Shown here piece after piece: positions 8,971-57,579 of a stretch of DNA of 64,000 nt. The DNA comes from an uncultured delta proteobacterium (GTDB lineage Bacteria > Myxococcota_A > Polyangia > Polyangiales > Polyangiaceae): NCBI GenBank assembly GCA_963841435.1, contig CAWJCS010000002.1, forward strand, positions 1 through 64,000, written 5' to 3'. The translations under genes were made by a program, and so were the position numbers. A model generated the notes under the pieces. That model saw only the letters and a program-made list of their open reading frames with translations, had not been told where the DNA came from and did not search any database. Numbering within the stretch: position 1 is the stretch's first letter; each line of letters opens with the position of its first letter.

Positions 8971-9048
8971 GCGCCAAGGCAAATCGAACTGGGGAACCGG
9001 CTCAGTCGCGGACGGCGGCACGGCCGCAGGAGAACTCGGAAGCGTACC
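8971..9048 (-). mobile_element. ISCR-like terminal (oriIS-like) remnant
   Basis: The reverse complement ends in CAGTTCGATTTGCCTTGGCGC (8991-8971), a variant of the conserved end motif. Confidence 0.6.
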
Positions 9049-9517
9049 TGCTCTCGAGCCACTCGCGGCTCCGCCGAGAAGTGGTCCCGCACTCGCCCGC
9101 CGATCCGAGCGCCACCGCGCCGCCGCCTGCTCCCGGCGATCAGCTCGAGCTTGCGCTCGATGCCGAGAGCGACGAGCCCGCTCCGAGAAAAAGATGGGCG
9201 TGGCTCTTGAAACACGTCTTCGCGGCAGACTTGGATACGTGCCCCCGCTGTGGCGGACCGATGCGCTGGATGGAGGCTGCAGCCACCGCCGAGGCGGCTC
9301 GCGACTTGCTTGCCCGGCTCGGGCTCGCTCCGCGCCCGCCGCCGGCTCCGCATCCTCCTCCGCTCGGGCAGCTCAAGCTGCCACTCTTGCACTGACAGCT
9401 CCAGGCTCGGCAGCCTCGAGGCGGACGTGTCCGTCAACTCCTCCGGTCGGAGGTTCGCCGACGGGCAAACTGCCGGTCCGTCGTTCCGCTTCTGCCTCCT
9501 CCCTGCGTTCTCCGGTA
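9049..9517 (+). mobile_element. ISCR-like transposase 3' fragment
   Basis: Near-identical to 23202-23670. Encodes LSSHSRLRREVVP...CPRCGGPMRW...GQLKLPLLH*. Confidence 0.9.
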
Positions 9518-9724
9518 TCGAACAGCCTTACTCTCCGTACCGGCAGGTCGAGCAAGAACACCGCCAGCGCCCACTCGACGAACCGCGCGTAGAAGCCCAC
9601 TTCGCGTCGAATGCTTTCATTGCCCGGATCGAACGCCCGCGCCGCCGGGGGGTCCACCACGCCGCCACCGGCGCGCGCCGCGCGCGTGAGCCGCTCGATT
9701 TCGACCTTCCGCTGTACCACGAAC

Positions 9725-12283
9725 CTACGGGGTAACTTGCAGCGTCGCCGCGGTCAGTGTACTCGAGCTGGCGCTGCAGGCGCCCGATATGAGCCCGGTC
9801 AGACCTGGCCACACCGCTGTGAAGCGATAGGACCCGTCATAGTAGAACGAGCCCTGCAGGTAGTCGCCCGTCGCTCCGAACGTCGTTGTCGCGCTCGTGA
9901 GCGACACGCGGGTCCCCGTGAGATCCAGATCACGAACCGCGATGGCCTTGTATGTCATCTGGGTCCCCGCCGGAAATCCCGCCCAAACGGGGATGTTGTT
10001 GGTCTTCATGCAAGTCGCGCCTGGGTTGACCGATGGCGAAGCCGTAGTCTCCTGCCAGTACAGCACCGCGATGTTGGTATCGATGCGGGTATCGAGGTCG
10101 ACACGGTTGGTCTCAATCAGCGTCGGTTGCCAGACGGAGCCGCCTGCGGTTGTGGCTTTGAGCGCATTCGCGCCCGATGGGTAGGTGGCAGCCGTCACCG
10201 TGCTCGTGTTGCTTGGCGTCACCTTGACGCCGTACATGCGTAGCTGTTGAGAGCCGCTGACGAGAATGGGATAGGTGACCCGGACCGAATCGCCATCCGG
10301 CCACGAACCGAGCCGCGATACGGTCACACCGCCGGTCACGGCATTGCCCCCGGCTGCGGTGAACACTGCACAGCTGTCAGCGCTGACGGACGTGGAATAG
10401 AGCCTCGTGGAAGTGGAGCTCGCGGTGGCAGCGCCCGGGTCGGTCCAGTAGAGCGTGGGCGTTCCCGATGGGCACTTCAGGAAGAAGAGCCGCCCATTGG
10501 GAGACGAGGTCATGGCCTGCCATGAGTTGTTGTCGAAGCTGAAAGCCTGGCCCACCTGACCCGGAGGACCCAGCGTGAAAGTGAGAGGCGTGATCGTCGC
10601 CGGCCCGCCGGCGACGTCGATGCGCCACACGTTGTAGCTTCCGCCCTGGCCAAAGGCCCACGCTCTCTTCGACCACGGATCGGCGTACATCTCCACGCGA
10701 TCCGCACCGCCGAATCCAACCGAGCTGTCGCTGGGGAAGAACGACCAGTTCTTCCCGCAGTCAGTGGATTGCCACAAGAAGAGGTGTCCCGCTTGGTTGT
10801 TCTGTGCGCTCGGCGCGTTGCAATCGCGCCCTAGGCGAATGTGAATGATGTCTCCATTCGACATCCGCACCGCGTTGGGATCGTTTCCCAGCTTGTAAGG
10901 ATAGGGACTGAGCGGGCTCGGTGGGCAGGACTGGGTGTCGGCCCAAGTTCCGCCGATGGGTTTGTACAGGCGGTCGGTCACGTCGAGGGCGCTCGTGCCC
11001 CAGCTGTCTGATTGCGCGGCGAGCCCGTAGTCAACGGATCCATTGAAGATGTGCGCGCGCTTGGCCACACCGGAACACCTGGCGGCGTTCTGCGGCGTGA
11101 CGACGAGCGACGTCTCCCAGAAGGTTGGAGGCGTATTGGCCGGTGTGCTTACCGTCTGGGTAAACCGCGTCCAGCCGCTATTCACGTTCGCGAGCGTGAC
11201 GACACTCGACGAGGCAATCGAGGGCGCGCTCTGATAGTATTTCTTGCGCCAGAGGCCGCTGGAGTTGGCTGCGTAAACATCGAGACGGCCGGAGCTCGGC
11301 TTCGACACGGCCACGGAGTACCCTGCAGATGCACCAGGGGTTCCACCACCGGCGTCCCAAACGAGCGCTGCCGCATTCGACGGCGTCGCGGTGCTGAAGC
11401 TGGTGTGATAGATGACGCCGTCGGAGCCTCGAGCAAAGATGTCGAGCCCGGTACCATCGACTGAGCCGAGCCCGGCGATGACCTGATTCGTCTCCCAGAA
11501 CCCGCCGAGAGGGCCGGCCCACTGCGACCAGCTCGTCCCGCTGTAGTGAGATTGGTAAAGGGCTCCGTTCGTGCCTTGTACGACAACGTCAATCTGTCCC
11601 AATGCGCGCGAGAAGGCAGCGGGCGCCGCCTTGGCACCCCCGGGCGGAACGCCGGGATTCATGTCCCAACCGCCCGTGGGAGTCGTGCCCTGAATCAGCG
11701 TGTGCCAGACCGCCTTCCGCCCGTTCGCATCGGCCTGACCCAGTGCGAAGACCTCGAGACGATTGCTTGCGTACATGGCAACGGCGGGCGACGACGTGAG
11801 GACGCCGTTTGGAATGGCGACCCATGACGCCGACAAGCCGGCGCTCGTGTAAGTGCGATAGTAAAGCGTGTTGTTGGAGGCACCCCGGACAACCACGTCG
11901 AATTGGTTGTCGTGGTACGCCGACGCGGGATTTCCGGACAGACCTCCGGGAGGAGAGCCCCAGTTGGTGAAACGACCGATCGCGCTACCAATCACTTGAA
12001 CGTGGACCAGTGACGCGGCCTCGTCGAGCCATAGGTCAATCCACGTCGGCGAGCTACCGGGCACCCAAGAAGCGGAAGCGCCAGCATTGATCGAGCCGCC
12101 GCTCGACTCGAGCTTGTCCCACCCCATGTCACTCCATACGGCTAACCCGCTCGAGACTTCGCCGACGGGTTCGCTCTGAGCGTCTTCCGTCCACTTCGAT
12201 GCGCAGCCCACCAGCGCACAGCCCGAAAGCACTATTCCCAACCCGAGCTTCGCGAGCCGGGTTCGCTTCGACGAAGGAATCAT
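9725..12283 (-). CDS. Large secreted lipoprotein with lectin-like beta-propeller repeats and a sialidase-like region
   Basis: Signal peptide with lipobox LVGC. Repeats FDVVVRG, LEVFALG, IDVVVQG, LDIFARG and LDVYA, each with Trp residues. Asp-box-like STDCGKNW. Confidence 0.65.
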   Translation of the reverse strand: MIPSSKRTRLAKLGLGIVLSGCALVGCASKWTEDAQSEPVGEVSSGLAVWSDMGWDKLESSGGSINAGASASWVPGSSPTWIDLWLDEAASLVHVQVIGSAIGRFTNWGSPPGGLSGNPASAYHDNQFDVVVRGASNNTLYYRTYTSAGLSASWVAIPNGVLTSSPAVAMYASNRLEVFALGQADANGRKAVWHTLIQGTTPTGGWDMNPGVPPGGAKAAPAAFSRALGQIDVVVQGTNGALYQSHYSGTSWSQWAGPLGGFWETNQVIAGLGSVDGTGLDIFARGSDGVIYHTSFSTATPSNAAALVWDAGGGTPGASAGYSVAVSKPSSGRLDVYAANSSGLWRKKYYQSAPSIASSSVVTLANVNSGWTRFTQTVSTPANTPPTFWETSLVVTPQNAARCSGVAKRAHIFNGSVDYGLAAQSDSWGTSALDVTDRLYKPIGGTWADTQSCPPSPLSPYPYKLGNDPNAVRMSNGDIIHIRLGRDCNAPSAQNNQAGHLFLWQSTDCGKNWSFFPSDSSVGFGGADRVEMYADPWSKRAWAFGQGGSYNVWRIDVAGGPATITPLTFTLGPPGQVGQAFSFDNNSWQAMTSSPNGRLFFLKCPSGTPTLYWTDPGAATASSTSTRLYSTSVSADSCAVFTAAGGNAVTGGVTVSRLGSWPDGDSVRVTYPILVSGSQQLRMYGVKVTPSNTSTVTAATYPSGANALKATTAGGSVWQPTLIETNRVDLDTRIDTNIAVLYWQETTASPSVNPGATCMKTNNIPVWAGFPAGTQMTYKAIAVRDLDLTGTRVSLTSATTTFGATGDYLQGSFYYDGSYRFTAVWPGLTGLISGACSASSSTLTAATLQVTP

Positions 12284-12705
12284 TTTCTAGACCCTTTTCT
12301 CCGCGCTACCACTCGCCACCCTCATAGCTAGTTCATGAGCGAAAATGTCGTCGATGGCGCGTTGGTTCGCCAGAACGCACGCAAGCTTTCATTCGAGATA
12401 TCGGCGCGAAGCGCCGGACTCTGCACTGCTTACGCGAGACGTAACATCACAGCCGAACATGCCTTCGCGACAAGGCAAAAGGATATTGACCAGAATACAT
12501 ATTTGTCAAGCAGAAAACGTTTTTCTGTCTCGGTTGAGGCCTCGTCCCCCGCTCAAGACAAGTGAACTAAATCAGGTCTTCGTTACCGGTGGACAGGTCT
12601 CCTAACGAACGGACTGGGTTGTCGAACGGCGGAAATTCCGGCTCCAAAATCAGACACACCGAGGCCGCCCGAGGGGGTCGGGGTCGAGCTCTGAGCTGAG
12701 GGGAT

Positions 12706-12804: not shown

Positions 12805-12850
12805 TCGCGGGATCGCTTGACTTTGTAGGGGGATCCATCCGTCGCAGGAA

Positions 12851-13217
12851 TGTGTTCCAGGCGGACCTCGACACTTGCCCTCGCTGCGGTGGACCGATGC
12901 GCTGGATGGAGGCCGCTGCCTCCAAGGAGGCTGCTCGCGACCTGCTTGCTCGGGCTCGCGCCGCGCCCGCCGCCGGCGCCAAAGCCGCCGCCGCTCGGGC
13001 AGCTCGCGTTGCCGTTCATGCGGTGAGCCGTCAAGTGCACGCCGGCCAGCGCGGGCGTGTGCGCCGTCTGCGCCCACGGGGCGGCGCGGGGGTTCAGGAG
13101 GAGGCGAGCGGCTGGACGCGGCCCGCGTGACCGTGCCCGACGAGTAACGGGTCCCGTCCGCCCACGATCCACCGTCCCGGGCTTGCCCCGATTTTGCAGT
13201 TGGATCTTCCTTGGCGC
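12851..13217 (+). mobile_element. Diverged ISCR-like 3' end with oriIS-like terminus
   Basis: VFQADLDTCPRCGGPMRWMEAA...GQLALPFMR*, then CAGTTGGATCTTCCTTGGCGC at 13197-13217. Confidence 0.8.
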
Positions 13218-13480
13218 TGGCCGCGCTGGTCACCCGGAGTCCGATCGGTATCGTTCCGACCGCGTCTCTCCGAGAGGCGGCCAACACGATGCTTCAGGAA
13301 GGCATCGGCCGTCTGCCCGTCATCGAGGCGGGCCGCCTGCCGGGCATCGTCACGCGCAGCGACCTGCTCGAAGGCCAGAAGCCCAGACTCCTCGCCGCCA
13401 TCAGGCGCGAGCGAACGCGCCGCCTCGGAGCGCCGTGGCGCTCCGCGTCCCCGCGGCCCGGGGAGCGCGCGGGAGTCTGA
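13218..13480 (+). pseudogene. CBS-domain protein C-terminal fragment
   Basis: ASLREAANTM...IGRLPVIE...GIVTRSDLL begins directly after the oriIS-like motif. Confidence 0.75.
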
Positions 13481-16724: not shown

Positions 16725-17139
16725 TCATGAGCCTGTCGCGATCTCGTCGTAGCCGCGCCCTTTGAACTCGAGCAGGCAGAAGCCGTGCCCAAACGGATCG
16801 GCGAGCAGTGCCAAGCGTCCCCAGGCGTGCTCGCGAATCCCACCCTCGCGCTTCGCACCTGCGGCCTCGGCACGCTGAACCGCGGCATCGAGGTCGGTGA
16901 TCACGAAGTCGAGATGCACCGGCGTCCAGTGCCGGCCGTAGTCACGAGGCCGCGGCGCACCGGCGAACGGCGTGGAGTTCGACGAGCTTGACCAGGAGGT
17001 ATATCGGCACCTCGCCACCGCGTAGCTCGACGGCGCCCTCGCCGAACTGTCGCGCCACGTGCAGCTCGAACGCTTCCGTGTAGAAGCGGACACCTCGTTC
17101 GAGGTCATCAACGTCGATATTCACGAGCAGCCGCGTCAT
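16725..17139 (-). CDS. VOC/glyoxalase family protein, frameshifted near 16985
   Basis: MTRLLVNIDVDDLERGVRFY in one frame and WTPVHLDFV...ADPFGHGFCLLE in another. Confidence 0.8.
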
Positions 17140-17164
17140 CTGCGCAGATCCTACCACCGCGCGA

Positions 17165-17558
17165 GCTCGCCTACCCAGGGGCTCGGTGCCCTCGCTGAGA
17201 AGATCGACATACGGTGAGTACGCGAAGACACGGTTGCGAGCGTACCCGGTGAGCTCGCGGACGATGCCGAGCTTGGTCATGCGATCGAGGGCCGAGGCGA
17301 CGGTCGGATAGGTCAGCCCAAGGCCCTGCTGCACCTCGCGGATCCCGGTGATCGGCTTTCTTTGAAGGTACTCGTGGGCGCGGAACGTCGATGCTGCGGC
17401 ACGACCGAGTCCTTCGATCTTCCGACGGTCGGCATCGAACAGCGCGAGGATTCGCCTCGTGGTGCCAAGCGCCTCGTCTGCGGCCGTTACCACGCCCTCC
17501 AGGAAGTAGCGCAGCCAGCCCTCCCAGTCGCCGTGCGTGCGCACGCGCTGCAGGTCTG
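17165..17558 (-). pseudogene. Fic-family protein C-terminal fragment
   Basis: GDWEGWLRYFLEGV...IVRELTGYARNRVFAY, a typical Fic C-terminal HTH region. The catalytic HPF motif is absent. Confidence 0.75.
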
Positions 17559-17574
17559 GACGCCTATGAAAACT

Positions 17575-18060
17575 TGCGGTCCTCCGGAGCAGCTCCGCCC
17601 AGGGGCGATAGCGCGAGCCGCCCACGCTTGAAGGCGCCTCGCTGCACGGCGAGGGGGCGCAGGGCGAGGCAGCGTCGTCGGTCGCTTGGCTCGGCCCTGG
17701 CTTGGGCACGATGAGTGGCCGCCACTTGGCAGCGGCGGCGAGGACGCCGAAGTAGCGCACGGTGTGGAACCGGGGCGCTGGCACGAGCGCGACCAGGCGG
17801 CAGAGCAGCGACAACGGGTCGAGGTCGACGGCGACGGTGCCGTCACTGAACGGCTTCTTCAGAGCGATGCGCACGAGCCCATCGGGGCCGGGTAGGAGCC
17901 GCTCGTTGGCCAGCGGCGGGCGCAAGATGCACTTCAGCAGCGCTTCGCGTCCTTGCTCGTCGGCCGGTGCGGCGCGAGTCGCGGCGTGCAGGCTGAAGCC
18001 GGCTTCGCGCACCGAAAGCGGCGCGTCGATGACCACGCCAGCGGCCCGATCCCGGCCGCC
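17575..18060 (-). mobile_element. ISCR/IS91-like transposase internal fragment (second subfamily)
   Basis: GFSLHAAT...ILRPPLANERL...FSDGT...RLVALVPAPRFHTVRYFGVLA...WAELLRRT. Confidence 0.85.
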
Positions 18061-18074
18061 TTTCGCCCAAACCT

Positions 18075-19037
18075 AGTCGCATAATAAGAAGCGTCCGGCG
18101 CGAGTCGAGCGAGTGAGGCTGTGCCGACCGAGCGAGCATTCGCGCTGAGGTTTGTTGGAGGGAGCCGTTGCGCGGCAGCGCAGGTCGCGGGGCTATGGGG
18201 ATCTTGGCAAAGCCGGTGGGGCGAAGGCGGACGCTTTGCGGCCTATTCGGACACGACCGGGTGGCAGGCGCACCAAGATTTGGCAGCTGGCCGGCCCTCG
18301 GCTGGAGTTGAGGGCGGTTGTCGGCAAGCGAATGGCGCCGATCGCCAGGGCGCGGGTAGACGACTCCGTCACGAGCGCGGGTGCGTCGTTTTGTGTCTGC
18401 GCGCCGGTCACGCCGCGACCTCGGGCGGCGCTCGAGCGCCGGGTGGGCGGAGCGAGGGCAGCGGTCCTCGCTGCACGGCGTGGGCGCCGCAGCTGGGGCA
18501 GAGGGTGACATCGACCGCGGCGACAGTTTCGAGCAGCTCAGGCCAGGACTCGTCGTGCTCGCTGTCTTGCTGGTTGGGTTGCTCGCGCTCGGCACCGCTG
18601 CCGCCGAGCAGTGCTCGAGCGCGCTCGAGGCGGGTGGTCACGTTGCCGGAAGCGAGCAAGCCGTAGTGCCTGATTTTCACGAAGCCGTGCGGCAGGACAT
18701 GCTGGAGAAACCGCTTCAGAAAACGAGCGGTGGCAATGAGGCGGTCTGGTCGCCGCGCGTCCGAAACCTGACGGTCTCGTCAGTGGCGCATACGAGTCGC
18801 GAGTTGCTGATAGCGACTCGGTGGGTGTAGCGCCCGAGGTATCGATAGACCTGCTCGCGGCCACCGAAGCGCCGCTTGGCGTAGACGATCCACGAGGCGC
18901 GGTGCAGAGCATCCGTGCGATGAGCGGCAGCGCGGCCTTCATCCTCGGCAGCAAGCCTCAGTCGTCCATCGCGACGAGCGCGAGCCAGCCCATCGAGCAC
19001 CTTGCCGCGAAAGAGGGCGGCGAGGACGCGGACGGGG
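18075..19037 (-). mobile_element. IS91 (Y2-type) transposase 3' half, frameshifted, plus downstream end region
   Basis: LFRGK, YLGRYTHRVAISNSRL (YxxxY), RFLQHVLP...KIRHYGLLA and CPSCG motifs. Confidence 0.85.
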
Positions 19038-19680
19038 GCGGATAGGAAACGCAAAGCGGATTCGACGAGCGAGCCGACGTGCCCACACAGTTGACCGATT
19101 CGAGTCTTATGCGACCCAGCCGGCGGGCCGGGGCCGCTGAGCTAATCCAAAGGGGACCACTCCCTCGCCGCACATGGTCGCGGGTCGGGGTCCCGGGGTC
19201 TCACCACCGGTCGGCGTCGGGGTCCACCAGGTCCGGGCTCCGGGCGCGGGCGATCGGCGGAATGCTGGCGTCTCGACCGAGGCTTCGGAGCAATGCGGCC
19301 GCAGTGTCGGCGTCGAGGATCAGCGCGATGAATCGGAGGCGCCCGCCGCAGGGGCAGGCGAGCGCGTCAACGTCGTAGATGCGCTTCAGAAGCTCGGCCC
19401 AATCGATGCGCTCGGATCGAGGGCATCGGGATGCCGGTGCATCGCATACGGGCGCGCGCGGTGGCGCAGGGTGATTTGTGGCGACGCTCGTCAACGTAAT
19501 CGGCCGACGCGCCGCCCCACTGGGCCCAGGCCCGAGAACGGGCCCAGCGCATGTACGCTCCGCCGGGACAGCACGCGGGCACTCGGCGACCTCGGGCGCG
19601 TCTGCCGACTTGCGCGGAACGATCGCCTTGCGCCACGCGGAGTGTGGCGCGAACACTCCGTGGAATCGGACGAGCGGATG
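19038..19680 (-). mobile_element. ISCR-like transposase 3' end (third subfamily) with canonical-looking oriIS
   Basis: RFHGVFAPHS...RIDWAELLKRIYDVDALACPCGG. The reverse complement of 19038-19058 is CGCTTTGCGTTTCCTATCCGC. Confidence 0.8.
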
Positions 19681-19681
19681 C

Positions 19682-19751
19682 AGCGACGAGCCCGCTCCGA
19701 GAAAAAGATGGGCGTGGCTCTTGAAACACGTCTTCGCGGCAGACTTGGATA
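19682..19751 (+). mobile_element. 70-bp internal piece of the main ISCR-like family
   Basis: Identical to the SDEPAPRKRWAWLLKHVFAADLD segment of 23321-23390. Directly followed by an IS66 left end. Confidence 0.85.
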
Positions 19752-22446: not shown

Positions 22447-22689
22447 GCTTCCGGGGGGCAGCCCGGCGGATCCACTTGTGGAAATCCCTGGGCATGCCCC
22501 GCTCGGCGAGCATGCGGACTTGGAACGCCATGCCGTTGCCTCTCACGCCCGTTCGACGACTGTTGTCAACCCAAGCGGCGGGTCACCCAGTGGCCTTTCA
22601 CGGATCGGTGACCTGGTCGGCGATGGCCTCGTGGTGCTGGCCGAAGTCCGGCTGGCAGGTCGTGCAGGCGCACACCTCCGGTGGATGAT

Positions 22690-23741
22690 CTTCCACCGCA
22701 CCGCCGAGCGCGTCGACCGGCTGCTCACAAAGAGCGGCCGGAGCCTCGAGCGGGAAGGGGACGAGCCGGTGCCCGAGCTCTGCTCCGACGAGCCAGGGCT
22801 CGCCTCCTGCTACGCGGCCGCGGCCCAGGGCATCAGCGTGAGCGGCGAGCGGGCAGGAAAGCCCCAGCTCAGGCTCGTCTTCGGCACCCCCGCCGCCCCC
22901 GAAAGGGCAGAGCAAGATCCGGACGAGCCGGTCGCCGAACACCGCGGCGTCAACGTCCACGCGAGACAGTCGGTCGACGGCCGCGACCGGCGACAACTCG
23001 AGCGGCTGTGCCGCTATGTCACGCGGCCTCCGGTTGCACAGGACCGGCTCGCTCGCCTGCCAGACGGCTCGCTCGAGCTCCGCCTCAAGCACCCGTGGAA
23101 GGACGGCACGCGCGCCGTCGTGCTGGAGCCGGATGATCTCTTGGTCCGGCTCGTCGCCTCGGTGCCCCCGCCGCGCTGGCATTTACTCAGATATTTTGGC
23201 GTGCTCTCGAGCCACTCGCGGCTCCGCCGAGAAGTGGTCCCGCACTCGCCCGCCGATCCGAGCGCCACCGCGCCGCCGCCTGCTCCGGGCGATCAGCTCG
23301 AGCTTGCGCTCGATGCCGAGAGCGACGAGCCCGCTCCGAGAAAAAGATGGGCGTGGCTCTTGAAACACGTCTTCGCGGCAGACTTGGATACGTGCCCCCG
23401 CTGCGGCGGACCGATGCGCTGGATGGAGGCTGCAGCCAGCGCCGAGGCGGCTCGCGACTTGCTCGCCCGGCTCGGGCTCGCTCCGCGCCCGCCGCCGGCT
23501 CCGCATCCTCCTCCGCTCGGGCAGCTCAAGCTGCCACTCTTGCACTGACAGCTCCAGGCTCGGCAGCCTCGAGGCGGACGTGTCCGTCAACTCCTCCGGT
23601 CGGAGGTTCACCGACGGGCAAACTGCCGGTCCGTCGTTCCGCTTCTGCCTCCTCCCTGCGTTCTCCGGTAGCGCCCCCCTCCGGCACCTCCAACTCAGCT
23701 CGCTCCGCCCAGCTTCTTCGCAGTTCGAATGCCCTTGGCGC
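22690..23741 (+). mobile_element. Longest copy of the main ISCR-like element: transposase C-terminal part, 3' non-coding region and oriIS-like end
   Basis: GVNVHA, LERLCRYVTRPP (single Tyr), WKDGT, RYFGVLSSHS and CPRCGG motifs. Stop at 23548. CAGTTCGAATGCCCTTGGCGC at 23721-23741. Confidence 0.9.
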
Positions 23742-23837
23742 CGCCACCTTCCGCAACGTTACGCAACGATCCCACACCCAAAGCTATCCCAGAACGTTGC
23801 GGATCGTTGCATGGCATTGCGGTTCGTTCCCCTGAGC

Positions 23838-23863
23838 GCGGGTTCGAGTCCCGTTGGGGACGC
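23838..23863 (+). other. tRNA-Glu-like 3' fragment (att-like site, not a full tRNA)
   Basis: GCGGG-TTCGAGT-CCCGT T-arm followed by TGGGGAC-GC acceptor 3' strand. No D-arm or anticodon arm upstream. Confidence 0.7.
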
Positions 23864-23888
23864 AGGTTCTCGCCAGTTCGATGCTCGC

Positions 23889-31196: not shown

Positions 31197-31831
31197 CACG
31201 CGCGCCGTCGTGCTGGAGCCGGATGATCTCTTGGTCCGGCTCGTCGCCTCGGTGCCCCCGCCGCGCTGGCATTTACTCAGATATTTTGGCGTGCTCTCGA
31301 GCCACTCGCGGCTCCGCCGAGAAGTGGTCCCGCACTCGCCCGCCGATCCGAGCGCCACCGCGCCGCCGCCTGCTCCCGGCAATCAGCTCGAGCTTGCGCT
31401 CGATGCCGAGAGCGACGAGCCCGCTCCGAGAAAAAGATGGGCGTGGCTCTTGAAACACGTCTTCGCGGCAGACTTGGATACGTGCCCCCGCTGCGGCGGA
31501 CCGATGCGCTGGATGGAGGCTGCAGCCACCGCCGAGGCGGCTCGCGACTTGCTCGCCCGGCTCGGGCTCGCTCCGCGCCCGCCGCCGGCTCCGCATCCTC
31601 CTCCGCTCGGGCAGCTCAAGCTGCCACTCTTGCACTGACAGCTCCAGGCTCGGCAGCCTCGAGGCGGACGTGTCCGTCAACTCCTCCGGTCGGAGGTTCG
31701 CCGACGGGCAAACTGCCGGTCCGTCGTTCCGCTTCTGCCTCCTCCCTGCGTTCTCCGGTAGCGCCCCCCTCCGGCACCTCCAACTCAGCTCGCTCCGCCC
31801 AGCTTCTTCGCAGTTCGAATGCCCTTGGCGC
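31197..31831 (+). mobile_element. 5'-truncated copy of the main ISCR-like element with oriIS-like end
   Basis: Near-identical to 23107-23741. End motif at 31811-31831. Confidence 0.92.
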
Positions 31832-37130: not shown

Positions 37131-37480
37131 GGTCGCGGCAGCTTGTAAAGCACCGGATGTGCCAAGTGTCGTCGCGCCCACGAATCGACGAGCTCGACCC
37201 CGCGCGACCGTGACGCGATCGCCCCAAGTGCGGCAGAGTGCCTCACGCGCGCAAGGGCCGTCTGCGCTGCGCGACGTGGCGTCAGTTGCCCGCGACGATC
37301 GGAGTGAGCGCGGTGCCACGAGAACACCAGCATGCCCGACGCCTCACCGCGCTCGGGGCCCGGCAAAGGCGACGCCTGCGCGAAACTCGAGCCACGGGCC
37401 TTGGGCGGTGGCTGCGAACGGAACGCCGGCGCCGAGCGAAAGCTCGAAGGACGAACGGCTCGCGAAGCCGCGGCCCGAAG

Positions 37481-37568
37481 GAGGGGGAGCGGAAGAGGGC
37501 CGGCTTTTCGGGTCTTGGGGCGGCAAGCGCACGCACGCTCGGCCAAGGCGAAGCCGGATTGGGCCGGC
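37481..37568 (-). mobile_element. Non-coding piece of an ISCR-like 3' region
   Basis: Matches 39449-39527 apart from a short indel. Confidence 0.75.
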
Positions 37569-37759
37569 ACTCGTCGGCCTCCCGCAGGTCTCGAGGGTCC
37601 TCACGAGTCTGTTGGCACCGACCGAATCGCCGGGCGCGGGGTAGCGAGCCGTCAGCGGAGTGCGCACCGGCCGGAGCCGTGCGCTCGGAGCCTCGGCAAA
37701 CGTGTAGCGACGAGAGGCTGCGCGCATCGTTCGGCTCGTTGCGTGGTAGCGTTCGATTC

Positions 37760-38899: not shown

Positions 38900-39331
38900 C
38901 GAGAGGTAAGTGGACGACGCCGGAGCGCCGCAAGCCCCAGCATGAGCCACAGCGACGCGCCCGATCTCGGCGCGTGCCCTGGCCGCACGCTGCAGCCAAT
39001 CGTGCCCTCCACGTTCGACGTGGCCGTGTCACTCTCGGGCTCGTTGCCCGGGGTCGCGACGCCCGCGGTTCCCGCCGGCGAGGAGGGCTCACTTGCGCCT
39101 GCACCGCCGGTCTCGCTCACGCTCGCGCCGCCATTGCCCGCGCCGGCTCCCGCATCGCCCGCCGCTGCGCCGCCGCTCCCCGAGGCTCCGATCCCGGCAC
39201 CCCCGCTCGAGGAGCCGCCGGCAGCCGGAGCGCCACCGACACCTGAAGCGCCGGCCGACATGTCGACGGCGCCTCCGGCTCCAGCGCCGAGGCCACCCGC
39301 GGATCCGCCACTGGCCAGGCCGCCCGCGCCG
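38900..39331 (-). pseudogene. C-terminal fragment of a MYXO-CTERM protein
   Basis: Gly-rich linker then GCSVRPG...LWLMLGLAALRRR. Begins immediately at an oriIS-like end. Confidence 0.75.
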
Positions 39332-39670
39332 GCGCCAAGGGCATTCGAACTGGGAAAACGAGGGTGAGGGGCGGGCGGAGGCTTTGGTGGGTGACGCCTG
39401 ACCCCGCCGCGGTGGGGAGGCGAGAGGGGCGAGAAGGCAAAAGAGCAGGAGGGGGAGCGGAAGAGGGCCGGCTTTTCGGGTCTTGGGGCGGCCACGCTCG
39501 GCCAAGGCGAAGCCGGATTGGGCCGGCTCACCGCGGGAACGGCAGCGCGAGCTGCCCGAGCGGCGGTGGGTTGGGTGCCGGCGGCGGACGCGGACCGAGC
39601 CCAAGGCGCGCGAGCAGCTTGCGAGCCGCCTCGGCGGTGGCCGCTGCCTCCATCCAACGCATCGGCCCCG
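39332..39670 (-). mobile_element. Diverged ISCR-like 3' end with oriIS-like terminus
   Basis: GPMRWMEAAAT...GQLALPFPR*. The rc of 39332-39352 is CAGTTCGAATGCCCTTGGCGC. Confidence 0.88.
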
Positions 39671-39674
39671 AACA

Positions 39675-40095
39675 CCGGTATCGCGCTTGGTGTGCGAGGC
39701 GCGGCGTCCGGCCGCGCTTTGGCAAAATCGCCGAACACGGAAGCATCGCGATCATAGAGCGATTCTTCCGCTCGATGAAGCAGGAATGCTTCCGCCGGAT
39801 GAGCGTGCCGCTCAATGCCGGTGCCTTCGAGCAGGAGCTCGCTGCCTACGCGAGCGGGTAAAACCGTTTCCGACCTCACGCGGCGCTGGGTGGGAGGACT
39901 CCCGGTGACGCGCATGATGACATTTCGCCGGCCACGGAGCGGCCGGCGCTCGAGCCGCGTCCTCGCTTTCCGCTCCTGCCGAGAGCTGGGCCCGGAAGAC
40001 TCCGGCGCCGCTTGCGCGGGCGGCTCGAGCTTCGTCTGACTTGCTTCAAAGGGCGCGCGCACTTGCCCATCGTCGAGCTCCGGCGCGCGGCATGA
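39675..40095 (+). pseudogene. rve integrase-core transposase C-terminal fragment
   Basis: RFGKIAEHGSIAIIERFFRSMKQE...*NRFRPHAALGGRTP, with an internal stop. Confidence 0.75.
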
Positions 40096-40219
40096 GCGCG
40101 TGCGCTTCGGGCGCGCCGTGGTCAACGCGCAGGGCGAAGGTGCGTCCAGCAGGCGGATCGGCGCCGTCGATCCGCTCGTGACCGAGCGATCAGCGGGCTG
40201 GACGATGCGAAACGGGGTC

Positions 40220-50900: not shown

Positions 50901-51154
50901 TCCGGCGCCAAGGTGGCTCCCTCATCTGGAAGATCCGCGAGGTCGAGAAGGGGCGCATCCCGGTGGGAGAGCCTCCGCGAGCTGCAGCAGCTGCTGCGCG
51001 ACCTCGACCAGGGGAAGCAGGCGGCGGTGAACCGGACACGGATGATGCCCTCGATGCGGTAGACAGTCGGGCACGCAACCTGCGGCTGGATGGAAGGCGG
51101 CTGCGTTGAATGCAAGTCGCCATTGACGAAGGTCCTTGGGTATCTTATCGTCTT

Positions 51155-51508
51155 ATGACGATGAAGACTGCTGCCCAAGTGGCCGAAGCGTGCTGCCCCC
51201 CTGCGAACGAGCAGGCGGACCTTCGACCCGTCGAAGGCGCCGAGGCCGACGAGGAGCTGGCGTCGCTGGCAAAGGCCATCGCTCACCCTGCGCGGGTGCA
51301 GATTCTACGCATCTTGGTGCGCAAAACCGCGTGCGTTTGCGGGGACATTGTGGACGAGCTTCCGCTCGCTCAGTCCACCGTCTCCCAGCATTTGAAGGTG
51401 CTCAAGGACGCGGGCGTCATCCGCGGCGAGGTTGACGGACCGCGAGTCTGCTACTGCATCGAGCCCCGAGCCCTCAGGCGGCTGAAGGCGCTCGTCGGGG
51501 GGCTTTGA
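51155..51508 (+). CDS. arsR: ArsR/SmtB repressor
   Basis: [19 protein letters not shown] and [13 protein letters not shown] motifs. Confidence 0.92.
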
Positions 51509-51567
51509 TGCTGCCCCTTTTTTCTCCCTCAGCATCGTTTATCGCCGATAGCCGAAAGGAAGTTCCC

Positions 51568-51957
51568 ATGTCCGTGACCATCCGCGTCTTCGACCCCGCC
51601 ATGTGCTGTTCCACCGGTGTCTGCGGCCCGAGCGTCGAGCCCGACCTGGCTCGCTTCGCCGCTGACGTCGATTGGCTCCAGAAGCAGGGCGTCACCGTCG
51701 AGCGCTTCAACCTCTCCCAGCAGCCCGGTGCGTTCGCCGAGACGCCCGCCGTCAAGGAGGCGCTCGCACGTGGCACCGAGGTGCTGCCACTGGTGCTCGT
51801 CGGCGACCGCATCGCGGTCGAGGGTTCGTACCCGTCCCGCGAGACCCTGGCTGCGTTGGCCGGCGTCGTGGTGAAAAAGCTCGAGGTGGCGCCCGCGGCC
51901 TCGAGTGGCTGCTGCGGTCCGAGCACGGGAGCCAAGTCGAAGACCAGCTGTTGCTGA
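51568..51957 (+). CDS. arsD: Arsenite metallochaperone ArsD
   Basis: FDPAMCCSTGVCGP. Confidence 0.95.
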   Translation: MSVTIRVFDPAMCCSTGVCGPSVEPDLARFAADVDWLQKQGVTVERFNLSQQPGAFAETPAVKEALARGTEVLPLVLVGDRIAVEGSYPSRETLAALAGVVVKKLEVAPAASSGCCGPSTGAKSKTSCC

Positions 51958-51968
51958 AGGAGCGCCAC

Positions 51969-53750
51969 GTGGACTTCCTCGAACGCGCGCCGCGAAACCT
52001 CTTCTTCACGGGCAAGGGCGGCGTCGGCAAGACGAGCGTCGCTTGCGCGACCGCCATTGCGCTCGCGGAGCGCGGGCGAAGCGTGCTGCTCGTCAGCACC
52101 GACCCCGCCTCGAACCTTGATGAAGTCCTCGAGACGTCGCTCGGCAGCGAGCCTCGTCCGGTCGCGGGTGTGCAGGGGCTGTTCGCGCTGAACATCGATC
52201 CTGAGGCCGCCGCCCATGCCTACCGGGAGCGTATGGTCGGCCCCTACCGCGGCGTGCTGCCCGACGCCGCAGTGCGCAGCATCGAGGAGCAGCTCTCGGG
52301 CGCCTGCACAGTCGAGATCGCTGCCTTCGACGAGTTCTCGAAGCTGCTCGGCGACGCGCGCGCAACGGCAAACTTCGATCACGTCGTGTTCGACACTGCA
52401 CCGACCGGGCACACGCTGAGGCTCCTCGAGCTGCCTGCAGCGTGGACCGGATTCCTCGAGGCAAACGTCGGCGGCACGTCGTGCCTCGGTCCGCTTGCCG
52501 GCCTCAAGGCGCAGCAGGCGCTCTATGATGGCTCACGTCAGGCGCTCGTCGATGCGAGTCGCACCGCGCTAGTGCTCGTGTCGCGCGCGGAACGCTCTGC
52601 TCTCGCCGAGGCAGAGCGTACGCGCAGCGAGCTAAGCTCGCTCGGTGTCGAGCGGCTTGAGCTGGTCATCAACGGCATCTTTCGCGCTTCGGACCACTCG
52701 GACGTGATCGCTGTGGCGATGGAGCGTCGAGGCACGGAGGCACTCGACGCGATGCCGACAGGTCTTCGTGCGCTCGCGCGTACCGACCTTCCGCTCTTGC
52801 CCTTTGGGCTCATCGGCATGAATGCGCTGCGAAAGCTCTTTACCGCCCCCGCAGCGCGCCCGGCCGAGGTCGAGACCGTTCGGGCTGACGCACCCCCACC
52901 GAACACGCGACCCCTCGTCCAGCTGCTGCCCGCGCTCGGGGAGCACGGGCACGGCGTGATCATGACGATGGGCAAGGGAGGCGTCGGCAAGACCAACGTC
53001 GCCGTGAACGTCGCGGTAGAGCTCGCGCGACGGGGGCACAAGGTCCACCTGACGACGACTGACCCGGCGGCCCACGTGGAAGAGACCCTCGGAGGCAGCG
53101 TTGACGGCATCCGAGTGAGTCGCATCGACCCCGAGTCGGAGACGCGCGCGTACTCCGAAGAGGTGCTGCGAACCGCCGGCGCTAATCTGGACGCCGCGGG
53201 ACGCGCGCTTCTCGAGGAAGACCTCCGAAGTCCATGCACCGAGGAGATCGCCGTCTTCCGCGCGTTCGCGCGCATCGTCCACGAGGGCGAGCACGGGTTC
53301 GTGGTTATTGACACCGCGCCCACCGGGCACACGCTGCTCCTGCTCGATGCGGCCGAGTCCTACCACCGAGAGGTGTTGCGGACGGCGGGCTCGGCGCCGG
53401 AGGAAGTCCGACGTTTGCTGCCGCGTCTGCGCGACCCTGCGTTCACGAAGATCCTCCTCGTCACGCTCCCTGAGGCAACTCCTGTTCATGAGGCCGCCGC
53501 ACTGCAGCGCGATCTGCTGCGGGCGGACATCCGGCCGTTCGCCTGGGTTGTGAACCAAAGCCTCATCCCGCTGACGGTCACGGATCCGGTCCTGGCCCGG
53601 CGGCGCGCGAACGAAGCGCGCTTCCACACCGAGGTGAACGACCTGGCACCGCGCGTCGTCGTCGTGCCTTGGGCCGCGCCGAGAGCAGCGCAGGTGAGGC
53701 TGGACTTCTTCGCGGGTCCGGAGCAGCCGCGCGCGGAGGCGGCACCATGA
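51969..53750 (+). CDS. arsA: Arsenical pump-driving ATPase ArsA
   Basis: Two GKGGVGKT and two DTAPTGH motifs, with Cys ligands in GACT, SCLGP and SPCT. Confidence 0.96.
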   Translation: MDFLERAPRNLFFTGKGGVGKTSVACATAIALAERGRSVLLVSTDPASNLDEVLETSLGSEPRPVAGVQGLFALNIDPEAAAHAYRERMVGPYRGVLPDAAVRSIEEQLSGACTVEIAAFDEFSKLLGDARATANFDHVVFDTAPTGHTLRLLELPAAWTGFLEANVGGTSCLGPLAGLKAQQALYDGSRQALVDASRTALVLVSRAERSALAEAERTRSELSSLGVERLELVINGIFRASDHSDVIAVAMERRGTEALDAMPTGLRALARTDLPLLPFGLIGMNALRKLFTAPAARPAEVETVRADAPPPNTRPLVQLLPALGEHGHGVIMTMGKGGVGKTNVAVNVAVELARRGHKVHLTTTDPAAHVEETLGGSVDGIRVSRIDPESETRAYSEEVLRTAGANLDAAGRALLEEDLRSPCTEEIAVFRAFARIVHEGEHGFVVIDTAPTGHTLLLLDAAESYHREVLRTAGSAPEEVRRLLPRLRDPAFTKILLVTLPEATPVHEAAALQRDLLRADIRPFAWVVNQSLIPLTVTDPVLARRRANEARFHTEVNDLAPRVVVVPWAAPRAAQVRLDFFAGPEQPRAEAAP

Positions 53751-54184
53751 CGACCCAGCCGCCCACAATGAAGTACGTGGTGACCGCAGACACCAAGACC
53801 GATGGCCAAGCAGCCGTGCAGGCACGGACGTCCACCATCGCCTTCGACGGCTCAGCGCAGGCGGGCGAGACGCTCCCGGGTCCTGCGGACCTCCTCTGCG
53901 CGGCGCTGTCTGCGTGCATCCTCAAGAACGTCGAGCGGTTCTCGCACATGCTTCCGTTTCGCTACCACTCGGCCTCGATCGAGGTGACCGCGGAGCGCGA
54001 GGAGCCGCCGCCGCGCATCGTGCGCATGCACTACCGCCTGCGCATCGTCACCGATGAGCCTGCGGCGCGCCTTGAGCTGCTGCACAAGAACATTCGCAAG
54101 TTCGGGACGATCACGAACACGCTGGCGGCCGCGTGCGAGGTCACCGGCGAGCTCGAGGCCGTCCCCGCCGGAGGCAAGTCGTGA
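53747..54184 (+). CDS. OsmC-like protein
   Basis: GPADLLCAALSACI...ITNTL. Overlaps both arsA and arsC. Confidence 0.8.
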   Translation: MTTQPPTMKYVVTADTKTDGQAAVQARTSTIAFDGSAQAGETLPGPADLLCAALSACILKNVERFSHMLPFRYHSASIEVTAEREEPPPRIVRMHYRLRIVTDEPAARLELLHKNIRKFGTITNTLAAACEVTGELEAVPAGGKS

Positions 54185-54648
54185 CCGCCGACCTGAAGGT
54201 GCTCTTCGTCTGTCTGCACAACGCAGCCCGCAGTCGCATGGCCGAGGCGCTCCTGCGCGACCAGGGCGACGGGCGTTTCGAGGTGACGAGCGCTGGCTTC
54301 GAGCCTCGTGAGGTGAATCCGCTCGTCATCGAGGCGCTCGGCCAGGTCGGGCTCACGCTCCCGTCCACCGCGCCGCAGCCGTCCGTCTTCGAGCTGTTCA
54401 GGGCGGGCCGTCACTTCCACTACGTCATCGGCGTCTGCGACGAAGAGCACGGACAGAAGTGCCCTCTGTTTCCCGGCGTGACGCAGCGCCTGTACTGGAG
54501 CTTCCCGGACCCTGCGACCTTCGTCGGCACGCACGAAGAGAAGCTCGCCCGCGTGGTCGAGGTGCGTGAGTCGATTCGAGCACGGCTCGAAGCTTGGCTC
54601 TCGACGATCCCCGGCGCGACACGCTCGCCCTCACCCACAAGGACCTGA
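54181..54648 (+). CDS. arsC: Arsenate reductase (LMW-PTP/Trx type)
   Basis: [15 protein letters not shown]...CPLFPG and WSFPDP motifs. Confidence 0.9.
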
Positions 54649-54653
54649 TCTCG

Positions 54654-55770
54654 ATGACCCACGCCAAGGCCGGTCTGCTCGGCAAGCTCTCGTTCCTGGA
54701 CCGCTACCTGACGCTGTGGATCTTCGCGGCCATGGGCCTCGGCATCGCACTCGGGTTCGTCGCGCCGGGCTTCACCACGGCGCTCAACAGTATGAGCGTG
54801 GGGACGACGTCGATCCCGATCGCGATCGGCCTCGTGCTGATGATGTACCCGCCTCTGGCGAAGGTCCGCTACGAGGAGCTGGGGAAGGTCTTCCGCAACA
54901 AGCGAGTGCTGACGCTCTCGCTCGTCCAGAACTGGGTGATCGGCCCGCTGCTGATGTTCGTGCTGGCGGTCGTGTTCCTGCGCGACAAGCCCGAGTACAT
55001 GCTCGGGCCTCATCCTCATCGGCCTCGCGCGCTGCATCGCGATGGTCATCGTGTGGAACGATCTCGCGAAGGGGGACACGGAGTACTGTGCCGGGCTCGT
55101 TGCCTTCAACTCGATCTTCCAGGTGCTGTTCTTCTCGGTCTACGCGTACTTCTTCGCGACGCTGCTGCCGACGTGGCTCGGGCTCGAAGGCGCCGTCGTC
55201 AACATCAGCATCGGCGAGATCGCGAAAAGCGTGGCCATCTACCTCGGGTTGCCCTTCGCTGCAGGGTTCCTCACGCGACGCATTCTCGTCAGCGCGAAGG
55301 GACGCGACTGGTACGAGAAGATCTTCGTGCCGCGCATCAGCCCGATCACGCTCGTGTCCCTGCTCTTCACCATCGTCGTGATGTTCTCGCTGAAGGGCGA
55401 GACCATCGTGCAACTTCCGCTCGACGTGCTCCGCATCGCCGTTCCGCTGCTCATCTACTTCGTGGTGATGTTCGGGGTGTCGTTCTTCATGAGCAAGCGC
55501 GTCGGCGCGGACTACAAGCAGTCCGTCACGCTCTCGTTCACCGCGGCGTCCAACAACTTCGAGCTCGCCATCGCGGTGGCCATCGCGAGCTTCGGCATTC
55601 ATAGCGGTGCGGCGTTCGCGGCAGTCATCGGTCCGCTCGTCGAAGTGCCCGTCCTCATCGGCCTCGTGAACGTCGCCCTCTGGGCCCAGAAACGCTTCTT
55701 CCCGAACACCCCGCTCGAGGTCGCGGCGGCCGCGTGCGCGATCCCGGGCAATCCCGAGAGCAAGGCCTGA
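54654..55770 (+). CDS. acr3: Acr3 arsenite efflux transporter, frameshifted near 55007
   Basis: [35 protein letters not shown] and GPLVEVP motifs. One extra G in CTCGGGCCTC. Confidence 0.93.
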
Positions 55771-55774
55771 GACG

Positions 55775-56230
55775 ATGAACTCCGACAAGACGATCCTTTT
55801 CCTTTGCGTCGCCAACTCGGCCCGCAGCCAGATGGCCGAGGGCCTCGCGCGAAAGCTCTTCGGCGCGCGCGTTCCCGTGCAAAGCGCCGGGAGCGAACCG
55901 TCGCAGGTGAATCCGTATGCGATCGAGGTGATGCGCGAGATCGGGGTGGACATCACGACCCACCATTCCAAGTCGGTGCAGACCATCGATCCCGCGACGG
56001 TGGGCACGGTGATCACGCTCTGCGCCGAGGAGGTCTGCCCGGTATTCATGGGCAAGGTGCGACGACTTCACTGGCCGATCCCAGACCCGGCGAGCAAGGA
56101 CCCCTCGATCCCGCGCGAGGAGATGCTTGCGCGCTTCCGGACGGCGCGGGATCAGGTCCAGGTCAAGCTCGAGACGCTCGCGTCCACCCTCGACGTGCCG
56201 GAGGACGCGAAGCCCACGGCTCTTGGGTAG
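55775..56230 (+). CDS. arsC: Second arsenate reductase
   Basis: [20 protein letters not shown] and HWPIPDP motifs. Confidence 0.9.
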
Positions 56231-56245
56231 GCCTCGATCGAGCCC

Positions 56246-56947
56246 ATGACGCGACACCAAACCGTTCGCGAGGTGGCGGGGGAGTTCCTGGGAACGGGGC
56301 TCTTGGTCACGGTCGCCTTCGCCTCCGGGGCAGTTCGAGTGCAGCTGGGTACGGGGACCATGGGCGGCGCGCTGCTCGGCTCGCTGGCGCTCGGACTCGG
56401 CTATGGGCTGGTGCTCTGGTCGGTCGGCCCGCTGTCCGGAGCGCAGATGAATCCGCTCGTGTCCATCATCGCGTCGGTGGTCGGGCGCCAGCGGTGGACA
56501 GGAACGCTGCTGCGTGTCCTCGCGCAAGTGCTGGGAGCGGTCGCGGTCGGACTCGTGCTTTCGCGACTGGCCACGTACACGTTCATTCGCGAGGACTCCC
56601 ACGTCGCCCCGAATCTGCTGGCCGAGGCGGTGGCTTCCTTCGCGTTCGTGCTGGTGGCGCTCGGGGTTGCGCATCGCCGAGACGTAAAGGTCCCCGTCGC
56701 GCTCGGGGCGTTCGCCACCGCGAGCTTCTGGATGACCGGGCGCGCCACGGTCGGCAATCCGCTCCTGTCGTTCACCGTCCTCCTCGTCGCCAGCGGCGAG
56801 GTCATCACGTGGATCGATCTGCTCCAGGTGGGAGTCTCGGAATTGGTCGGTGCCCTGTTCGGCACGGTGGTCGCGCTCTTCTTGTTCCCACATGCGCGAG
56901 AGTCCGCCGCAGCCTTGGTGTTCGCTCGGCGGCGGGCGGACGCATGA
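56246..56947 (+). CDS. MIP/aquaporin-family channel (AqpS-like, divergent)
   Basis: EFLGTGLL, SGAQMNPL and VGNPL motifs, with six hydrophobic helices. Confidence 0.8.
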   Translation: MTRHQTVREVAGEFLGTGLLVTVAFASGAVRVQLGTGTMGGALLGSLALGLGYGLVLWSVGPLSGAQMNPLVSIIASVVGRQRWTGTLLRVLAQVLGAVAVGLVLSRLATYTFIREDSHVAPNLLAEAVASFAFVLVALGVAHRRDVKVPVALGAFATASFWMTGRATVGNPLLSFTVLLVASGEVITWIDLLQVGVSELVGALFGTVVALFLFPHARESAAALVFARRRADA

Positions 56948-57174
56948 ACATGAGCCCCAGGGCACCCACTGCAATCACGGCTGCTCATCCAGACCGGCAT
57001 GAATCCGTGGTCCCTCGGCGCTGTCGTCGTGACCTGCGTGCTGACCGGCGCCAGCGTTTTCCTCTTCGGCGACCGCTCGAAGCTCGGTGGCGACGCGCGC
57101 GGCGCAGGCGACAAGAGGTAGGCCAGGACGCCGGGTGATGCCTCCACGACGTGCGAGTGACGAATGAGGTACCA

Positions 57175-57295
57175 TGGCCGGACCGTCTTGCGATCCAAGC
57201 TCGTCTCGCGTGAGATTTGGTGAAGACTCTGCTCCGCCGACCAGCGGCGAAGCACTTCCTTGATTTCGATCATCGTCAGCTCCCGGTAGGACATG
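57175..57295 (-). mobile_element. istA: IS21 transposase N-terminal stub
   Basis: MSYRELTMIEIKEVLRRW...ISRETSLDRKTVR. Confidence 0.7.
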
Positions 57296-57558
57296 GGTGG
57301 TTGCCTCCCGACGGCGACCCGCGCCGTCGTTGGAAACAACCTCACTCGCTTCCCGGGTCGCTCTGCTCGGAACCCCTCTTCCCCTTCCGGCTCGCCTCCG
57401 GCGAGCGTGTGCGCCCCTCCCGGCTCGCGAGAGCTCCGAACAGCCGACACCCCGCCGCTGAGCAGTGCGCCGCCCGTCGGCTGCCCCAATCTCCGGCCTT
57501 CAGGGGCCCGCTGGGGCCCGCTACCCCGGCTCGCTGCCGTCCCTCAGCACGATTTTCC

Positions 57559-57579
57559 CAGTTCGTTTCACCTTGGCGC
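57559..57579 (+). mobile_element. oriIS-like end motif
   Basis: CAGTTCGTTTCACCTTGGCGC, preceded by TTTTCC as in the 39332 copy. Confidence 0.65.

Follow-up and report, generated by a model that had tools for sequence, protein, structure and literature searches.

Truncated ISCR-like elements retaining an oriIS-type right end in a pseudogene-rich region of a Polyangiaceae genome

The window analysed here is a stretch of 64,000 nucleotides (nt) from an uncultured delta proteobacterium of the family Polyangiaceae (positions 1 to 64,000 of contig CAWJCS010000002.1, assembly GCA_963841435.1). Its host DNA has 67% G+C and is of the Myxococcota genome type, and the window is a plasticity zone that is dense in insertion sequences (IS) and rich in pseudogenes. 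At least fifteen pieces of ISCR-like elements, belonging to several lineages, were found in it by tblastn with the relative P0006, by searches with 28 full-length relatives at relaxed thresholds, by NCBIfam models and by self-comparison (Table 1). Eight of the fifteen keep the right end of the element (c1 to c7 and a degenerate eighth end) and the other seven are internal and broken on both sides. An earlier note on this DNA, made from the sequence alone, had described an end motif of 21 nt at seven junctions and had proposed that an ISCR subfamily with a variant origin captured and concatenated chromosomal pieces here.

Table 1. ISCR-like pieces, terminal motif sites and beheaded gene fragments at their junctions (aa, amino acid positions of the transposase)
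Feature	Position	Strand	Details
Terminal motif sites (pattern search)	8971-8991(-), 13197-13217, 23721-23741, 31811-31831, 39332-39352(-), 43378-43398, 57559-57579		
c1, solo right-end remnant	8971..9048	-	78 nt; motif at 8971-8991
Internal fragment, 'A' lineage	9049..9520	+	aa 400-513 and 125 nt downstream; without motif; 99% identical to c3 and c4
c2, 5'-truncated, 78%-identical lineage	12846..13217	+	transposase from aa 454; stop 13026; motif 13197-13217; stop to motif end 191 nt (13026 to 13217)
Beheaded CBS-domain fragment	13220..13477	+	single CBS domain (Pfam); at c2 junction
Distant-lineage ISCR-like fragment	17578..18039	-	aa ~306-458; 37-44% identity; in one open reading frame with Fic-like and glyoxalase pieces
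Second distant ISCR-like C-terminal fragment	19255..19674	-	aa ~385-490
Internal piece, 70 nt	19682..19751	+	100% identical to c3, c4 and 9049-9520; weaker protein similarity to 19840
c3, longest copy	22688..23741	+	aa 229-513, without HUH region; stop 23548; motif 23721-23741; stop to motif end 193 nt (23548 to 23741)
c4, last 635 nt of element	31197..31831	+	aa 367-513 and end; stop to motif end 193 nt (31638 to 31831)
Stop-to-motif spacer, c5 lineage	37479..37577	-	~100 nt; without motif
Gly/Ala-rich linker and MYXO-CTERM-like tail, beheaded piece	38902..39331	-	open in frame from c5 junction
c5, 5'-truncated	39332..39677	-	aa 466-514; stop 39528; motif 39332-39352; stop to motif end 196 nt (39528 to 39332)
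c6	42876..43398	+	aa ~15-183, zinc-binding domain, stops just before HUH; joined to last 15 nt of motif
Degenerate eighth end	47378..47409	+	CAGTTC-TGCCTTGGCGC, then 13-nt tandem copy TCTGCCTTGGCGC; upstream of trypsin/ricin gene
Internal transposase fragment	49253..49366	+	aa 349-386; 90% nt identity to c3
c7, solo end motif and T-rich lead-in	57559..57579	+	ars operon ends 56944
Beheaded DUF1552 fragment	57581..57898	+	profile positions 172-270 of 307; at c7 junction
Internal transposase fragment	60598..60719	+	aa 374-408; outside the span of the earlier note

A search with a degenerate pattern of the motif returned seven sites where 0.03 were expected from shuffled sequence (0 of 100 shuffles reached seven). 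These are exactly the places listed in the earlier note, and the four sequence variants given there were found to be as written. The copy at c6 agrees with the motif in 20 of the 21 bases, with position 2 being C in place of A. The 9-nt core CCTTGGCGC occurs eleven times in the window compared with 1.67 expected; seven of these are the listed motif copies, two belong to the degenerate eighth end and the remaining two (44083 and 50905) stand without motif context. Four copies keep the stop codon of the transposase as well as the motif, and the motif ends 191-196 nt past the stop in these, in agreement with the distance of about 190 bp that had been claimed. Alignment of the seven copies together with 400 nt upstream shows that the last 21 nt are conserved and are preceded by a short T-rich lead-in, with nothing in common after GGCGC. 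As an example, the most closely similar pair, c3 (which ends at 23741) and c4 (which ends at 31831), matches over 639 nt at 99.2% identity, up to a point 4 nt beyond GGCGC. The stop in similarity at GGCGC therefore holds for this motif, and all seven flanks differ; they begin with GAAG, TGGC, CGCC, CACC, CGGC, TGAA and CCGC, which have no consensus. Six of the eight ends, the degenerate eighth included, have one common direction. In the eighth end the motif is partly tandem-duplicated (13 nt twice), and a perfect repeat of the 21 nt (twice) was observed in a contig of an unrelated metagenome-assembled genome (MAG; L069:141-182). Such a tandem duplication of the terminal motif may have been left by re-initiation at the origin or by termination there.

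Among the pieces, c6 is the only one from the N-terminal half of the transposase. At its junction (43370-43398) codon ~183 (GCC GTT C) meets the GTTC of the end motif, and about 1.2 kb including the HUH region has been removed; GTTC is given as the tetranucleotide that IS801 and IS1294 cleave and target (PMC13181058). The start of an open reading frame (ORF) at 41148-42866(-), which has an RHS repeat-associated core domain and a C-terminal region of ~290 aa without a family assignment, abuts c6; this ORF is probably an orphan RHS tip. At its left break, c4 interrupts a minus-strand gene for a UvrD-type helicase, near profile position 22. The transposase fragment adjoining the motif of c1 is part of another copy and lies on the opposite strand. 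No transposase remnant was found ahead of c7 or of the eighth end, either with the 28 full-length queries at E<=5 or in a blastn comparison with the relatives. The first distant-lineage fragment is part of a 377-codon open frame at 16942-18072(-), in which it is combined with a glyoxalase piece and a C-terminal piece that is Fic-like. A different element, of the true IS91 type, has left frameshifted transposase fragments at 18411-19141(-), which cover NF033538 profile positions 177-355.

Pfam searches of the frames adjoining the motif identified Y2_Tnp (PF04986) in four fragments and Zn_Tnp_IS91 (PF14319) at 42876-43583. With the longest window fragment as query, 540 relatives were found at E<=0.001 among 8000 candidates scored. 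Complete relatives are 514-520 aa long, with a Zn_Tnp_IS91 and a Y2_Tnp domain, and the named hosts are Polyangiaceae, Myxococcales, Anaeromyxobacteraceae and one Planctomycetota MAG. The closest full-length relative among the candidates scored is P0006, which is 88-89% identical to the window fragment. Its best NCBIfam model is ISCR_clade_Ia (NF052416), with 255.4 bits over profile positions 24-476 of 509, where the cut-off is 925 bits. On the IS91 family transposase model (NF033538) it reaches 84.9 bits, below the cut-off of 125, and the window-type transposase is ~160 aa longer than this 356-position model.

Comparison with 72,556 plasmid records gave, among the matches listed, ISVsa3 at ~37% identity over aa 20-474. 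ISVsa3 is the name that ISfinder uses for ISCR2, which is the closest named element. The transposase aligns collinearly with the ISCR2 protein over its whole length, from the zinc-binding N-terminus through the HUH box (pattern NVH-x-H; NVHLHVL in the relatives, NVHFHML in ISCR2) and the single-tyrosine box LERLCRY, present in both, to the C-terminus, with ~515 aa here versus 497 aa in ISCR2. We consider the transposase to be ISCR-like because of the plasmid matches to ISVsa3/ISCR2, the collinear alignment and the HUH and LERLCRY boxes in common. By these profile scores and alignments, the element is classed as ISCR-like, yet outside the curated ISCR clade Ia and outside IS91 proper. The description that suits it best is a new, G+C-rich branch of the ISCR-like group from Myxococcota that has a terminal variant of its own, and this clade is abundant in Polyangiales and other Myxococcota. 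In a limited literature search for IS91 or ISCR in myxobacteria, no publication on this clade came up; PMC12772301 deals with ISCR28-sul4 in a Myxococcota MAG. In one relative, a 417-aa protein on a 799-kb contig (P0090) was observed to combine a cyclic-nucleotide-binding domain (PF00027) with the transposase C-terminal domain, a further chimeric frame where a copy is truncated.

The identity of the motif as the downstream, oriIS-type end of an ISCR-like HUH element, as the earlier note had proposed, is established by its fixed distance from the stop codon, by comparison with ISCR2 and ISCR27 and by the ends of the relatives. A pair of ISCR2 copies from different plasmid contexts matches at 99.7% identity over a stretch that begins 118 nt ahead of the start codon and reaches ...GGGCGTTTATTCTTCCTATACGT, past which the two diverge; this places the right boundary ...TTCTTCCTATACGT 235 nt past the stop. 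The oriIS of ISCR27 is given as GCGGTTGAACTTCCTATACC, 236 bp past its stop (PMC8894482), and an oriIS region of 232 bp is described for ISCR1 (PMC6218425). The window motifs have 10-15 of 22 aligned positions in common with ISCR27. At least 80 related loci were fetched from genomes, the best being 60-72% identical and most coming from Polyangiales and Myxococcales MAGs. With a strict pattern, the motif was observed 203-227 nt past the stop in six relatives (L001, L002, L003, L004, L015 and L018); compared with the ISCR2 end, L002 has 15 of 23 positions and L018 has 16 of 24 positions in common. By eye, most of 19 closer relatives have a sister motif at the same place, typically TTTTGGCAGTTCG(A/T)TTTTCCTACGCGC, and the sister motifs of Polyangiales and Myxococcales are mostly CCTACGCGC. 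L001 and L002, which are 82% alike and come from one MAG, lose their similarity exactly at the last base of the motif. A right terminus 190-250 nt past the stop with the pattern GC-GTT-G...TTCCTA...C is a likeness to ISCR2 and ISCR27.

The end itself varies between groups, with CCTTGG in the window and in L015, CCTACG in most relatives and CCTATAC in ISCR2 and ISCR27. The exact core CCTTGGC[GC]C had no match after a transposase gene in the related loci, so that the relatives use variant ends. The variant origin of the earlier note is therefore a real sub-variant, and the window-type end (CCTTGGCGC, or CCTACGCGC in relatives) differs from that of ISCR2.

At the left, terIS side, a G+C-rich palindrome GGTGGCGRCCGCCACC was observed in the relatives ~130 nt upstream of residue 16, and their similarity begins near TGACGGG, the same opening bases as in ISCR2. 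Searches of the window with the palindrome, an nhmmer profile and an ISCR2-like terminus, all being sequences of the relatives and ISCR2 and not of the window lineage itself, gave chance-level matches only. We read the missing left end as a loss in the window copies.

All copies in the window are dead and no functional element is present. Coverage of the transposase by the window pieces is 0 at aa 1-14 and 184-228, 1 over aa 15-183 and 229-305, and 5-7 over aa 400-514. As no piece covers aa 184-228, the HUH motif is encoded nowhere in the window, and none of the fragments has HUH and the catalytic tyrosine in one protein. With neither an HUH region nor a left end in any fragment, activity would need a transposase from elsewhere in the genome. 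The bias towards the right end is strong, with eight right ends and no left end. One lineage is represented by at least four overlapping pieces with 99-100% identity, which implies that the truncations were several and recent.

The DNA beyond the ends was found to include, in at least three of the seven flanks, genes that are oriented like the element and have lost their 5' parts (the CBS, DUF1552 and MYXO-CTERM pieces). Pfam bears out the CBS fragment and the DUF1552 piece that had been reported, which begin 9 and 2 nt past their junctions, respectively. The reported MYXO-CTERM tail was indeed found after the copy at 39332, although it scores just below the cut-off (19.3 bits versus 20). Two other assignments of the earlier note were not reproduced. 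Its 'tRNA att region' after c3 gave 0 genes with ARAGORN, nothing in Rfam at the gathering score and no tRNA match at E<=1 in 23600-24000, and its 'hsdR piece' after 43398 has no match in NCBIfam, Pfam, PDB sequences or a large protein set; the frame after c6 stays open for 62 codons and has no family match. Just past c3 (23750-23866) we noticed a long imperfect hairpin (23750-23823) and, by eye, a T-arm-like GGGTTCGAGTCCC stretch. The 3' ends of convergent genes lie within 60-150 nt of c3 and c4. The terminus of c1 faces a complete trypsin-like gene ~310 nt off. Both c1 and the eighth end are located 200-310 nt upstream of a trypsin-like protease gene of the same orientation (7806-8681(-) and 47374-48852(+), respectively), with 27% identity between the two proteins. 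Pfam searches of the window's ORFs and of 150 further stop-free ORFs turned up none of the 5' halves that the CBS, DUF1552 and UvrD genes have lost, and self-comparison of the window revealed no donor locus or duplicated cargo.

Taken together, the window is a graveyard of at least fifteen dead fragments of ISCR-like IS, with the motif as their right-hand oriIS-type terminus, and the right-end bias probably came from rolling-circle events. The sharp edge after GGCGC is the terminus of the element, and the DNA beyond it is either the target of insertion or DNA joined later. In the IS91 family the transposase nicks oriIS and copying proceeds through the gene to terIS, while failed termination carries upstream DNA along (PMC13181058). 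Events of this kind would start at the right end and run leftwards, giving the right-end bias and the beheaded genes of the same orientation. A one-ended read-through that halts in an upstream copy, or abortive copying, may leave a 5'-truncated remnant that keeps the right end; a remnant without terIS could take part in one-ended events only. Later deletions and insertions of other IS would account for the rest.

We infer that rolling-circle events contributed to this landscape because they predict both the right-end bias and the beheaded neighbours, and because the layout of remnant, cargo and full copy recurs in a Bdellovibrionales relative and in ISCR28. On a contig of that distant relative a unit of 5162 nt occurs twice with 99.8% identity (L039:491-5652 and L041:491-5652). 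The unit opens with the last 165 nt of the element, continues with 3.3 kb of other DNA and closes with a full element, ending exactly at the right terminus. In L041 the upstream element copy was observed to reach further left. For ISCR28, a 'sandwich' of remnant end, cargo and full copy is described (PMC12772301).

Several observations weigh against this reading. The sandwich model predicts a full copy or terIS to the right of a remnant, and none of the remnants has either. In the flanks after GGCGC there is no conserved tetranucleotide of the GAAC/CAAG type, as is present beside the oriIS of IS91, IS801 and IS1294, although the GCGC that closes the motif could be the target itself. DNA folding of the terminal 120 nt (78 nt in c1) at five window ends and at the ends of four relatives and ISCR2 revealed no stable subterminal hairpin, as the ten folds have z-values of -0.22 to +2.02 and none is better than its shuffles. 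The sign test on eight right versus zero left ends (p=0.008) treats the fragments as independent, and the left-end queries were foreign to the window lineage, as described above. Eleven fragment breakpoints were compared and have no common motif or microhomology, except for the GTTC shared at c6. Some fragments are as short as 70 nt and broken on both sides, which is unlike the product of a simple one-ended event. In addition, the same window holds copies of IS66, IS3 and IS630, and it holds pseudogene joins without an ISCR fragment, such as Fic/glyoxalase, AbiEii/FemAB and a frameshifted hsdM (N6_Mtase).

These last points suit a history of passive decay, in which whole elements inserted and were then broken by unrelated deletions and other IS, with the right-end bias arising by chance or by selection against pieces that carry the promoter and the N-terminal half. 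Apart from the IS copies and the many joins of non-ISCR pseudogenes, the two-sided fragments at 9049-9520, 19682-19751, 49253-49366 and 60598-60719, which share no breakpoint motif, speak for it. Clustered fragments, including N-terminal ones, also occur at the loci of relatives; these clusters cannot be used to test the right-end bias because the loci were chosen by N-terminal peptide patterns. Symmetric random deletion is, however, unlikely to give eight right ends and no left end together with a monotonic rise in coverage, and the overlapping, nearly identical pieces call for several recent, independent truncations within 25 kb. We therefore regard purely passive decay as possible but rather unlikely.

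The earlier note read the landscape as capture and concatenation of host fragments in the manner of Helitrons; in this reading, ends mobilised by a transposase in trans would have taken the fragments from intact donor loci elsewhere. It agrees with the end asymmetry and the coverage rising to the right end, with the common direction of six of the eight ends, and with the three confirmed beheaded flanks of the same orientation, which start 2-9 nt past their junctions. Reading frames continue through junctions, and one-ended transposition is documented for IS91 and IS1294 (PMC13181058); the duplicated units of remnant, cargo and element in the Bdellovibrionales relative and the similar layout of ISCR28 (PMC12772301) are further points in its favor. 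Open frames across junctions mean little, however, since long spurious ORFs are common at 67% G+C. Rolling-circle models place the cargo upstream of terIS, but neither terIS nor an intact element follows any block in the window, and other joins in the window were made without ISCR fragments. That the DNA differs beyond each end is no proof of capture, because DNA past the terminus of any IS differs at every insertion. Of the proposed capture and concatenation, what stands is a fit of the right-end bias and of the relatives' layout to rolling-circle events; no block was traced to a donor and no cargo is duplicated in the window. For want of a traced donor, and with many joins that lack ISCR sequence beside the debris of IS66, IS3 and IS630, a 'Helitron-style capture library' is unproven, and we consider this reading unlikely. 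It is more speculative still, and distinctly improbable, that solo oriIS-type ends without a transposase or terIS fire in trans, drag variable upstream DNA along and stitch gene mosaics or chimeric frames together. If true, this would be the bacterial equivalent of exon shuffling by Helitrons, at work in a large myxobacterial genome. Chimeric assembly, in which near-identical repeats such as c3 and c4 (99% identical over 639 nt) or the several identical pieces of 70-470 nt were wrongly joined, is highly improbable, as motif variants differ between copies and the boundary falls at the same base in lineages that are only 78-84% identical and in relatives from independent assemblies.

Rolling-circle transposition from an oriIS-type end, as favored here, would place the element beside several known systems. 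Truncated remnants that keep the oriIS-side end are also found with ISCR28 (PMC12772301), and remnant ends beside variable DNA are an already known ISCR theme. The window differs from described ISCR in its G+C-rich Myxococcota-type host, in having no attached resistance genes and in that all of its copies are dead. IS91, IS801 and IS1294 are likewise HUH rolling-circle elements with distinct ori and ter ends and without terminal inverted repeats, and their one-ended transposition carries DNA beyond terIS (PMC13181058), but no clear subterminal palindromes were found here. ISCR are clinically important on account of the resistance genes beside their oriIS end, and their ends have been defined mainly by comparison; according to the account in PMC6218425, no ISCR element has been shown experimentally to transpose. 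The large and diverse Myxococcota population of ISCR-like elements, with a sharply delimited but variable terminal motif and remnants strongly biased to the right end, offers many independent copies from which the rules of the end, the nick site and the frequency of one-ended events can be read.

Helitrons are eukaryotic rolling-circle transposons with an HUH nuclease, asymmetric ends and adjoining mosaics of gene fragments, and the ISCR-like elements resemble them in all three of these features. The window-type transposase, however, is not a Rep-helicase fusion and has no helicase domain (the UvrD-type fragment by c4, which the element interrupts, is encoded on the opposite strand), and no capture event is demonstrated in the window. 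For annotation, it follows that the frames in this window should be taken as pseudogenes and IS remnants and not as novel fusion proteins.

The remaining content of the window was observed to be of mixed kinds. A type I methylase gene (N6_Mtase) at 6644-7770 is split by a frameshift, with an IS630 copy directly before it. Debris of abortive-infection and toxin-antitoxin systems occupies 33803-35078 and 44110-46660 and includes a Rv0078B-like antitoxin, two partial AbiEii, a full AbiEii-AbiEi pair, DUF6922 and a FemAB C-terminal fragment. The Pfam search of the 150 further stop-free ORFs added only the Rv0078B-like antitoxin and a weak match to IS66 Orf2. An arsenic-resistance cluster extends over 51110-56944, ending ~600 nt before c7, and encodes ArsR, ArsD, ArsA, an OsmC-like protein, two ArsC of the low-molecular-weight (LMW) phosphatase type, a carrier of the ACR3/SBF type and an MIP channel. 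A 15-nt unit is repeated in tandem at least 17 times at 49949-50330, inside a minus-strand ORF of 374 codons that has no family match, and a perfect tandem duplication of 47 nt is located at 40219-40312.

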